From Escherichia coli (lineage in GTDB: Bacteria; Pseudomonadota; Gammaproteobacteria; Enterobacterales; Enterobacteriaceae), in NCBI RefSeq assembly GCF_009931435.1, contig NZ_CP043414.1: DNA of 64,000 bases, one strand, 5' to 3'. The position numbers are program-made. This document shows, in pieces, positions 45,001 through 48,000 of the stretch. Position 1 is the first letter of the stretch; each line of letters opens with the position of its first letter.

Positions 45001-48000
45001 TCGCGCGGCAGGTGGTCAGTTAAGCGAGAAAAAGATTGTCTTCCTCGGCGCAGGTTCAGCGGGATGCGGCATTGCCGAAATGATCATTGCCCAGACTCAG
45101 CGTGAAGGATTAAGCGAGGAAACGGCGCGGCAGAAAGTCTTTATGGTCGATCGCTTTGGTCTGCTCACCGACAAGATGCCGAATCTGCTGCCTTTCCAGA
45201 CTAAACTGGTGCAGAAGCGCGAAAATCTCAGTGACTGGGATACTGACAGCGATGTGCTGTCACTGCTTGATGTGGTGCGCAATGTCAAACCGGATATTCT
45301 GATTGGCGTCTCAGGACAGACCGGGCTGTTTACGGAAGAGATCATCCGTGAGATGCACAAACACTGTCCGCGTCCGATCGTGATGCCGCTGTCTAACCCG
45401 ACTTCACGTGTGGAAGCCACACCGCAGGACATTATCGCCTGGACCGAAGGTAACGCGCTGGTCGCCACCGGCAGTCCGTTTAATCCGGTGGTATGGAAAG
45501 ATAAAATCTACCCCATCGCCCAGTGTAACAACGCCTTCATTTTCCCTGGCATCGGGCTGGGTGTTATTGCTTCCGGCGCGTCACGTATCACCGATGAGAT
45601 GCTGATGTCGGCAAGTGAAACGCTTGCTCAATATTCGCCGCTGGTCCTGAACGGCGAAGGTCTGGTACTGCCGGAACTGAAAGATATTCAGAAAGTCTCC
45701 CGCGCAATTGCGTTTGCGGTTGGCAAAATGGCGCAGCAGCAAGGCGTGGCGGTGAAAACCTCCGCCGAAGCTCTGCAACAGGCCATTGATGATAACTTCT
45801 GGCAAGCCGAATACCGCGACTACCGCCGTACATCCATCTAAGCCTGCGCCCGGTAGTGACTGCTACCGGGCAATTTTCCTCTTCCTTTTTCAGATCTCAT
45901 CCATACTGGGTAGTGGCGAATAAATCTCATTTGCCTCACCTGCTATGCAGAACATCATCCGAAAAGGAGGAACTATGAAGGCTGCAGTTGTTACGAAGGA
46001 TCATCATGTTGACGTTACAGATAAAACACTGCGCTCACTGAAACATGGCGAAGCCCTGCTGAAAATGGAGTGTTGTGGTGTGTGTCATACCGATCTTCAT
46101 GTGAAGAATGGCGATTTTGGTGACAAAACCGGCGTAATTCTGGGACACGAAGGTATTGGTGTGGTGGCAGAAGTTGGCCCCGGCGTTACCTCATTAAAAC
46201 CAGGCGATCGCGCCAGCGTGGCGTGGTTTTACGAAGGTTGCGGTCATTGCGAATACTGTAACAGTGGTAACGAAACGCTCTGCCGTTCAGTTAAAAATGC
46301 CGGATACAGCGTTGATGGCGGCATGGCGGAAGAGTGCATCGTGGTCGCCGATTACGCGGTTAAAGTGCCCGATGGCCTGGACTCCGCGGCGGCCAGCAGC
46401 ATTACCTGCGCGGGTGTCACCACCTACAAAGCAGTAAAACTGTCAAAAATTCGTCCAGGACAGTGGATTGCTATCTACGGTCTTGGCGGTCTGGGCAACC
46501 TCGCCCTGCAATACGCGAAAAATGTCTTTAATGCAAAAGTGATCGCCATTGATGTCAATGATGAGCAGTTGAAACTGGCAACCGAAATGGGTGCAGATTT
46601 AGCGATTAACTCACGCACCGAAGACGCCGCCAAAATTGTGCAGGAGAAAACCGGTGGCGCTCACGCAGCGGTGGTGACAGCGGTAGCTAAAGCTGCGTTT
46701 AACTCAGCGGTCGATGCCGTTCGTGCAGGCGGTCGTGTTGTGGCTGTCGGTCTGCCGCCGGAGTCTATGAGCCTGGACATCCCACGGCTGGTGCTGGATG
46801 GTATTGAAGTGGTCGGTTCGCTGGTCGGCACGCGCCAGGATCTCACCGAAGCCTTCCAGTTTGCCGCCGAAGGTAAAGTGGTGCCAAAAGTTGCCCTGCG
46901 TCCGTTAGCGGACATCAACACCATCTTTACTGAGATGGAAGAAGGCAAAATCCGTGGCCGTATGGTGATTGATTTCCGTCGCTAAGAGGCCTTTGCTGCG
47001 ACTGCCATGTTTGAGTCGCAGCCTGTTTTGCGAGACGCTTTCCGCAATTTCACTCTTCTTCTTTTCCTCCCCCATCTTTCCTCTCACAATTCACGAAAAC
47101 GTAGCGAAATTTGTTGCGCTGCACGGAACAACAGTGATAGTGTTCCTTTCGAAGGAACAAGGATGAAGAGATGATAATGAATTTCAGACACAAGGGATTG
47201 CGTGACTTGTTTCTTCTCGGCAAAACCTCCGGCGTTATACCGACGCAAATCAAACGATTACGCCACCGACTCGCTGTGATTGATGCAGCAAGCTGTCTTG
47301 CTGATCTCGATATGCCCGGTTACCGACTACACCCGTTAAGCGGCGATCGTGATGGAATTTGGGCGATATCTGTCTCGGGCAACTGGCGAATCACATTTGA
47401 ATTCGTCAATGGCGATGCATACATACTGGATTACGAGGACTATCACTGATGAAAATGGCCAATCATCCCCGCCCGGGGGACATTATTCAGGAATCACTGG
47501 ACGAACTTAATGTCAGCCTGCGCGAGTTTGCCAGAGCAATGGAAATTGCGCCCTCAACGGCAAGCCGATTGCTGACCGGAAAAGCCGCGTTGACGCCAGA
47601 AATGGCGATTAAACTTTCCGTGGTGATCGGCAGTTCGCCGCAAATGTGGCTGAATCTACAAAACGCCTGGAGTCTGGCAGAGGCAGAAAAAACGGTAGAT
47701 GTGTCGCGATTACGCCGTCTGGTTACGCAATAAAAAAATGGCACCTTATAAAGCGCCATTTGAAACTGATGGCAAACGCAACATTGCCTGATGCGCTACG
47801 CTTATCTGACCTACACGTTCACTGCAATCTATTGGATTTGAACGGTTTGTAGGCCGGATAAGGCGTTCACGCCGCATCCGGCATGAATAAAGCCTACGTT
47901 GTCTACAATATGAAAATGGCGCCTTTTACAGCGCCATTTTCAGCTTAAAGTTCAAAAGAGATTATATCCCTTCTTCACTCTCTTTTTTCGCTTCTGCCTT

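Follow-up and report, generated by a model that had tools for sequence, protein, structure and literature searches.

The type II toxin-antitoxin (TA) pairs that stand closest to the one described here, i.e. a toxin gene followed by the antitoxin gene yddM within a 64,000-nucleotide stretch of Escherichia coli DNA (contig NZ_CP043414.1 of assembly GCF_009931435.1; the whole stretch is called the window below), are found in E. coli itself, on a plasmid of Proteus vulgaris and in Pseudomonas putida. For E. coli, Bustamante & Vidal (2020) listed a pair TA20, named 'ParE-2/HigA-2', in the adherent-invasive strain NRG857c; it is common to CFT073, and K-12 and HS were found to hold the antitoxin only (PMC7232551). 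TADB 3.0 gives it the name higBA, as quoted in PMC11205521, and the antitoxin is available as a solved structure (2ICP/2ICT), which is referred to as HigA/YddM of E. coli CFT073 (PMC3968373, PMC6987408, PMC6393540). The HigB-HigA system of the P. vulgaris plasmid Rts1 (PDB 4MCT/4MCX, 4YPB, 6CHV) is likewise toxin-first with overlapping genes, and its HigA carries an XRE-type helix-turn-helix (HTH) in the N-terminus. Its operators O1 and O2 are proven HigA sites, overlapping the -35 and the -10 (PMC12266136), and Schureck et al. found His54, Asp90, Tyr91 and His92 to be critical for HigB activity in vivo on the basis of growth and kinetic assays (PMC5027501). The GraT-GraA pair of P. putida (PDB 6F8S, 6F8H, 6FIX) belongs to the same HigB-like and HigA families and shows the same antitoxin fold; GraT, whose N-terminus is disordered, functions as a derepressor (PMC6393540; PMC12266136). 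Finally, the HigB-HigA system of E. coli K-12 (ygjN-ygjM) resembles the pair in the window in its name, in having the toxin gene first and in its type II TA logic, but it lies elsewhere (at fadH-rlmG), and in its HigA the HTH is C-terminal (PMC6987408). The two E. coli systems are distributed reciprocally, in that K-12 has an intact ygjNM and only yddM at the locus discussed here, whereas CFT073 and NRG857c show the reverse (PMC7232551).

Comparison with these systems leaves little doubt that the region in the window is a chromosomal type II HigB/HigA operon of the kind known from CFT073 and NRG857c. Two open reading frames (ORFs) follow each other on the plus strand, namely the higB-type toxin gene (47171..47449, 92 aa; the RefSeq orthologue has identical boundaries) and yddM, the higA antitoxin gene (47449..47733, 94 aa; annotated as WP_000781370.1 in many strains). 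The toxin stop TGA (47447-47449) and the yddM ATG (47449-47451) have the base A in common, so that TGATG is read at 47447-47451 (...CAC TGA TG AAA...) and the genes overlap by 1 nt. A Shine-Dalgarno-like AAGGA (plus strand, 47159-47163) is located 7 nt ahead of the higB ATG, and the N-terminus MIMNF that results from this start, which is also the RefSeq start, pairs with MIKSF of Rts1 HigB. The ORF list and the RefSeq annotation of near-identical genomes give the gene order as maeA - adhP - higB - yddM - REP (repetitive extragenic palindromic) cluster - fdnI/H/G. An earlier note on this DNA had placed a 92-aa ORF and the 94-aa YddM between adhP and a REP cluster, with the stop of the first overlapping the start of the second as tgATG, and proved literally right on both points. 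The note had also called the toxin-first arrangement typical of higBA, which agrees with the Rts1-type higBA on a Providencia IncT/IncC plasmid, where the same order and the same 1-nt overlap are found.

The coordinates of TA20, when checked, turned out to be those of this locus (adhP - WP_000605675.1 - yddM - fdnI); there, too, the genes measure 279 and 285 nt and overlap by 1 nt. CFT073 and NRG857c have an antitoxin protein identical to that of the window (WP_000781370.1 = 2ICP), and the toxin of E. coli Nissle (EcN) and NRG857c, WP_000605675.1, differs in 3 of 92 residues (I27, S41 and L46 in the window; V27, C41 and I46 in the other two); together with a few synonymous changes these are allelic differences only. 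The pair is not new, being an ordinary higBA module that is catalogued in RefSeq, TADB and the literature. Whether the toxin ORF is annotated in reference genomes had been left uncertain in the earlier note: it is annotated in all of the toxin-bearing genomes that were opened (R32_14_1F, EcN and NRG857c), under the product name 'type II toxin-antitoxin system RelE/ParE family toxin', but not in K-12, where the gene is wholly missing and yddM alone occupies the locus. The present analysis adds the prevalence of the toxin gene, the frameshift in sequence type 131 (ST131), the deletion shared by toxin-less strains, the ancestry of the pair, the constraint on YddM and the operator palindromes.

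The family membership of both proteins is clear. The only Pfam family matched by the toxin is PF05015 (HigB-like_toxin; E=3.9e-18), with residues 4-92 aligned to positions 2-91 of a model of 91. Within the PDB the best matches are the P. vulgaris Rts1 HigB chains of 4MCT, 4MCX, 4PX8, 4YPB and 5IXL (E=6e-32 to 7e-30; top chain 4MCT_B, E=6e-32), and GraT follows as a distant sixth (E=1.7e-7). BLASTP aligned the toxin with Rts1 HigB without gaps (52/92 residues identical, i.e. 57%, with 74% positives), and in this alignment His54, Asp90, Tyr91 and His92 all occupy the same positions; the four catalytic residues are also kept in the toxin orthologues of R32_14_1F (R32), EcN, E. albertii and the cryptic-clade strain Escherichia sp. 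MOD1-EC7003 (MOD1). YddM scores 93.7 bits against the NCBIfam HigA equivalog TIGR02607 (cutoff 47.7; residues 3-81 on profile positions 1-80 of 81), contains an XRE/Cro-type HTH (PF01381, HTH_3; E=5e-9) and is 100% identical over its 94 residues to 2ICP/2ICT, 'antitoxin HigA'. The profile search that the note had proposed thus upholds its two assignments, a toxin resembling the HigB family and an HTH antitoxin, and keeps the toxin inside the RelE/ParE/HigB superfamily. A role in anti-phage defence was also considered: the toxin has no match to any defence-system model of PADLOC-DB 2.0, which hence lends such a role no support, and YddM matches only the candidate model PDC-M64B, and that weakly (E=6.7e-5).

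Upstream of higB, repeat searches recovered, as direct and as inverted repeats, two imperfect 19-bp palindromes of the form TGTT(G/C)C-N7-GGAACA. Palindrome 1 (TGTTGC-N7-GGAACA; 47112..47130) overlaps a -35-like hexamer, TTGCGC (47114-47119). Palindrome 2 (TGTTCC-N7-GGAACA; 47141..47159) has perfect 8-bp arms (TGTTCCTT/AAGGAACA), begins 29 bp past the start of palindrome 1 and probably overlaps the transcription start; between the two lies the -10-like hexamer GATAGT (plus strand, 47136..47141). In the toxin-less allele of K-12 the intergenic DNA around the half-sites is heavily diverged from that of the window, yet over both palindromes 24/25 half-site positions are kept as against 6/14 positions of the N7 spacers (Fisher p=3.6e-4). 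The half-sites are kept in most toxin-less alleles, and GATAGT is unchanged in the window, EcN, ST131, E. albertii, K-12, O157 and O104. The Rts1-type locus is built to the same plan, with two palindromes about 29-30 bp apart and TATAGT between them. Judged by conservation and by this analogy, the two palindromes likely mark the operator of the pair.

Variants of this upstream region were seen in several strains. In O139:H1 W13-16 and in TUM2330, both toxin-less, a further 29 bp is gone, which is exactly one operator repeat unit including GATAGT, and O104:H4 carries the 19-bp palindrome 1 in the opposite orientation, its TGTTCCTTCCTACGCAACA being the reverse complement of the sequence in K-12. 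Between the hairpin behind adhP (see below) and the operator lies a CT-rich stretch of about 50-57 bp (..TTCTTCTTTTCCTCCCCCATCTTTCCTCTCAC..; window 47023-47079), which the toxin-bearing alleles and E. albertii have and all toxin-less alleles lack. As regards a small RNA or a type I/III component, an Rfam scan of 46800-48100 at E<=1 yielded sub-threshold matches to the REP-related naRNA4 and ES036 downstream of yddM and none in or upstream of the TA genes, and there is hence no evidence for either.

A number of points weigh against the locus being a straightforward HigBA operon with the regulation known from Rts1. A sigma-70 consensus scan of 46900-48000 called no promoter above threshold, so that the promoter would be weak or atypical and its placement draws on conservation and analogy. 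YddM is distant from P. vulgaris HigA (E about 1e-18; the latter has 104 aa, and its genes are borne by an IncT plasmid, as opposed to the 94 aa and the chromosomal location of YddM), and the half-sites differ as well, being TGTTCC/GGAACA around an N7 spacer in the window, whereas the Rts1-type locus has TATTACAC/GTGTAATA around an N3 spacer. That the half-sites differ is in keeping with two HigA proteins of low similarity. In view of both differences, aspects of the regulation, among them cooperativity and the effect of the toxin on repression, may not transfer from P. vulgaris. The GraTA relative, a far weaker match (antitoxin E about 2e-11), behaves differently in regulation (PMC12266136), although nothing in the window indicates a GraT-like derepression. 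With respect to the toxin itself, the NCBIfam search gave only a partial, sub-cutoff match to TIGR02385 (RelE/StbE; 18 bits, cutoff 27.9), so that the protein is not a member of that subfamily, and no specific HigB model was matched, which accounts for the generic product name in RefSeq. In addition, residues 27 and 46 of the window HigB are I and L, as against V and I in most orthologues, both being conservative changes. At the level of the literature, a 2024 review states that the pair 'remain[s] to be characterized' (PMC11205521), and we found no published experiment on the toxicity of this E. coli HigB.

The distribution of the pair was determined by a megablast search with a toxin-internal sequence of 264 nt against 5426 complete E. 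coli genomes. Toxin DNA was present in 1330 of these, each time as a single copy, and was thus missing from about 75%. Among the toxin-bearing genomes, 611 matched the intact 40-mer exactly, and 545, of the ST131 type, matched an exact 39-mer that reflects a 1-bp deletion in higB codon 33 (CACCGACTC -> CACCACTC, after residue 32, at the window equivalent of about 47268). This deletion leads to a frameshift and a premature stop and leaves YddM unchanged; in ST131 strain 751 the gene is flagged 'frameshifted' by RefSeq. The remaining ~174 genomes have other single-nucleotide polymorphisms in the probe region and, matching neither probe, stay unclassified.

In the six toxin-less alleles that were aligned (K-12 MC1061, O157:H7, O104:H4, O139:H1, S163-2 and TUM2330) there is one common junction, ...CTRATGAA/AATGGCC, which corresponds to a deletion of 272 bp from the ATGAA of higB codons 3-4 (47177-47181) to that of the yddM start (47449-47453). 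The deletion removes higB from codon 3 on and places yddM directly behind the former higB leader and operator; as a result, the yddM start codon of K-12 can equally be read as Met3 of HigB. A scan of species-representative genomes with a degenerate DNA pattern recovered the locus from E. albertii and Escherichia sp. MOD1-EC7003, where adhP and fdnI enclose both higB and yddM in intact form. Since these hold the intact pair at the same locus, the pair is ancestral and the K-12 state derived, and the synteny with E. albertii argues for a long residence. A foreign island was considered and rejected, the GC content of the pair (about 0.47-0.51) not being distinctive relative to that of the neighbours (0.49-0.59).

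To what extent the two genes are constrained can be read from a codon comparison of eight sequences (window, R32, K-12, ST131, EcN, E. coli E69, E. albertii and MOD1-EC7003). In yddM, synonymous variation affects 28 codons and amino acid variation 1. The corresponding numbers for higB, over the E. coli strains, E. albertii and the cryptic-clade strain, are 11 and 4, the amino acid changes being conservative. By these codon counts, both genes are under purifying selection. The YddM protein is identical in the window, R32, EcN, ST131, K-12, O104, O139 and E. albertii, and within the toxin-less set 8 codons vary synonymously and 2 in amino acid, both of the latter in the C-terminus of O157. The adjacent adhP shows 53 differences from K-12 adhP over 1011 nt (49 synonymous and 3 non-synonymous codons), from which it follows that the neighbourhood is fairly divergent between lineages; against this roughly neutral background the conservation of the half-sites and of YddM is conspicuous.

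Taken together, these data bear on the first of the alternatives to a working pair, namely that the higB of the window looks intact but is a dead or attenuated remnant, so that the locus would in effect consist of a stand-alone yddM and a passenger ORF. The locus is indeed decaying in E. coli, with higB gone from about three quarters of the complete genomes and frameshifted in the ST131-type ones, YddM is conserved with or without the toxin, and the toxicity of this particular HigB is predicted from homology. Nevertheless, the ORF has its full length and its catalytic residues, E. coli and E. albertii differ in higB mainly by synonymous substitutions (9-10 versus 1-2), and the start, the Shine-Dalgarno sequence, the overlap and the candidate operator have all been preserved, which makes a remnant improbable.

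Still less probable is a toxin of the ParE type, i.e. a gyrase poison instead of an mRNA interferase. That identity has been suggested by names: the orthologue of NRG857c was assigned by CDD to the ParE_toxin superfamily, from which came the name ParE-2 (PMC7232551), a later review treats the toxin under ParE (PMC11205521), and the RefSeq label is likewise 'RelE/ParE family toxin'. The superfamily label, however, covers both folds, and the toxin is a member of that wider RelE/ParE superfamily. In the Pfam scan ParE_toxin (PF05016) was absent even at E<=10, leaving HigB-like_toxin as the sole match, and the toxin is identical end to end at more than half of its positions to a proven ribosome-dependent RNase, with the four catalytic residues present; Pfam result and residues together contradict the gyrase-poison identity. 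That the two ORFs are unrelated neighbours, or one of them a chance ORF, with no functional pairing, has nothing but their small size to recommend it and can practically be dismissed, given the strong homology statistics for both toxin and antitoxin and a toxin-first order with 1-nt overlap that is kept in E. albertii, the cryptic-clade strain and the Rts1-type plasmid.

If the locus operates as a HigBA module, the following course of events may be envisaged, in which toxicity, neutralisation, cleavage specificity and operator binding are modelled on the P. vulgaris system. One weak promoter (TTGCGC-16-GATAGT) would give rise to a bicistronic higB-higA mRNA, and the TGATG overlap would couple the translation of the two ORFs. 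HigB, a 92-aa protein of predicted RelE fold, would act as a ribosome-dependent RNase, occupying the A site of the ribosome and cleaving mRNA under translation at A-rich codons by means of His54, Asp90, Tyr91 and His92, and by homology this cleavage should halt protein synthesis and growth. YddM, in the solved structure a fully folded XRE-HTH dimer, would have a twofold activity: as part of a HigB-(HigA)2-HigB complex it would hold the toxin off the ribosome, and through its HTH motifs it would bind the two palindromes flanking the -10 and thereby bring about autorepression. With regard to the history of the locus, most E. coli lineages would have lost higB by the single 272-bp deletion and the ST131-type lineages by the 1-bp frameshift, all toxin-losing lineages having kept a near-invariant YddM.

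The near-invariance of YddM, irrespective of whether higB is intact, frameshifted (ST131) or deleted (K-12, O104, O139), raises the possibility that the protein has a job of its own. It might be a domesticated antitoxin that serves as a stand-alone transcription factor, or that provides chromosomal anti-addiction immunity against the HigB homologues of enterobacterial plasmids; we regard such a role, argued from sequence constraint, as tentative and not as the likelier outcome. The collection of plasmids that was searched contains 542 records with HigB homologues, about 40-58% identical to the toxin of the window; for the copies on E. coli plasmids the figure is about 49%. YddM has been profiled as an Xre-family candidate transcription factor by chromatin immunoprecipitation with exonuclease digestion (ChIP-exo; PMC6237786), and the delta-yddM mutant of the Keio collection is reported to be hypersusceptible to epetraborole, an inhibitor of leucyl-tRNA synthetase, a phenotype that was left uncomplemented (PMC12457515). 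The candidacy and the phenotype are hints of a toxin-independent role. Among the minus-strand ORFs that overlap the pair is one of 90 aa opposite yddM (47487..47759), at most a candidate gene, which probably corresponds to c1908 of CFT073; c1908, annotated antisense of yddM, gave a signal in a sigma-S run-off microarray (PMC3141248).

The surroundings of the pair were mapped as well. The adhP ORF spans 45945-46985, and directly 3' of its stop a hairpin with perfect 9-bp arms (GCTGCGACT-N10-AGTCGCAGC, followed by CTGTTTTG; plus strand, 46995..47022) is kept in K-12, O157 and E. albertii. This hairpin, which the terminator scan of 46900-48000 did not call, is likely the adhP terminator and would then form the upstream limit of the higBA unit. 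The only type of site that the scan did report is a terminator-like hairpin on the minus strand; it is located directly 3' of the yddM stop (47736..47761, called on the minus strand only) and recurs near-identically at about 47913-47938, adjoining fdnI. The two copies flank the REP/BIME-like (bacterial interspersed mosaic element) cluster at about 47790-47900, which is marked by the sub-threshold naRNA4 and ES036 matches and by repeated megablast placement (the flanking query found a median of 37 places per genome). The arrangement has the look of a shared bidirectional terminator that was split by insertion of the REP block. The fdn genes beyond it are on the minus strand, with an fdnI ORF at 47962..48657 whose span reaches further upstream than the 654 nt that related genomes have annotated as fdnI. 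The spacer between yddM and fdnI (window 47734-47961) varies in length between strains: ST131, O104 and O139 have 49-51 bp, EcN, O157 and the window about 228 bp, and K-12 has 406 bp; in TUM2330 it contains an IS200/IS605 tnpA insertion, and MOD1-EC7003 has an additional 162-aa ORF between yddM and fdnI without a counterpart in the other strains examined.

As a discovery the pair carries little weight, since it is annotated, listed in TADB and published, and the structure of its antitoxin has been in the PDB for years. The analysis does bear on the name of the pair and on strain background. Because the toxin is a close HigB by sequence and by its catalytic residues, the predicted target is translated mRNA and not gyrase, and the published label 'ParE-2' is misleading. 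Strain background matters in that the toxin is frameshifted in ST131 and gone from K-12, leaving the laboratory reference with yddM as an orphan antitoxin. The pair in the window is a clean candidate for an assay of toxicity and rescue, and the sequence offers a concrete operator prediction. A function as stand-alone regulator, or in anti-addiction, may possibly be responsible for the strong constraint on YddM after the loss of the toxin.

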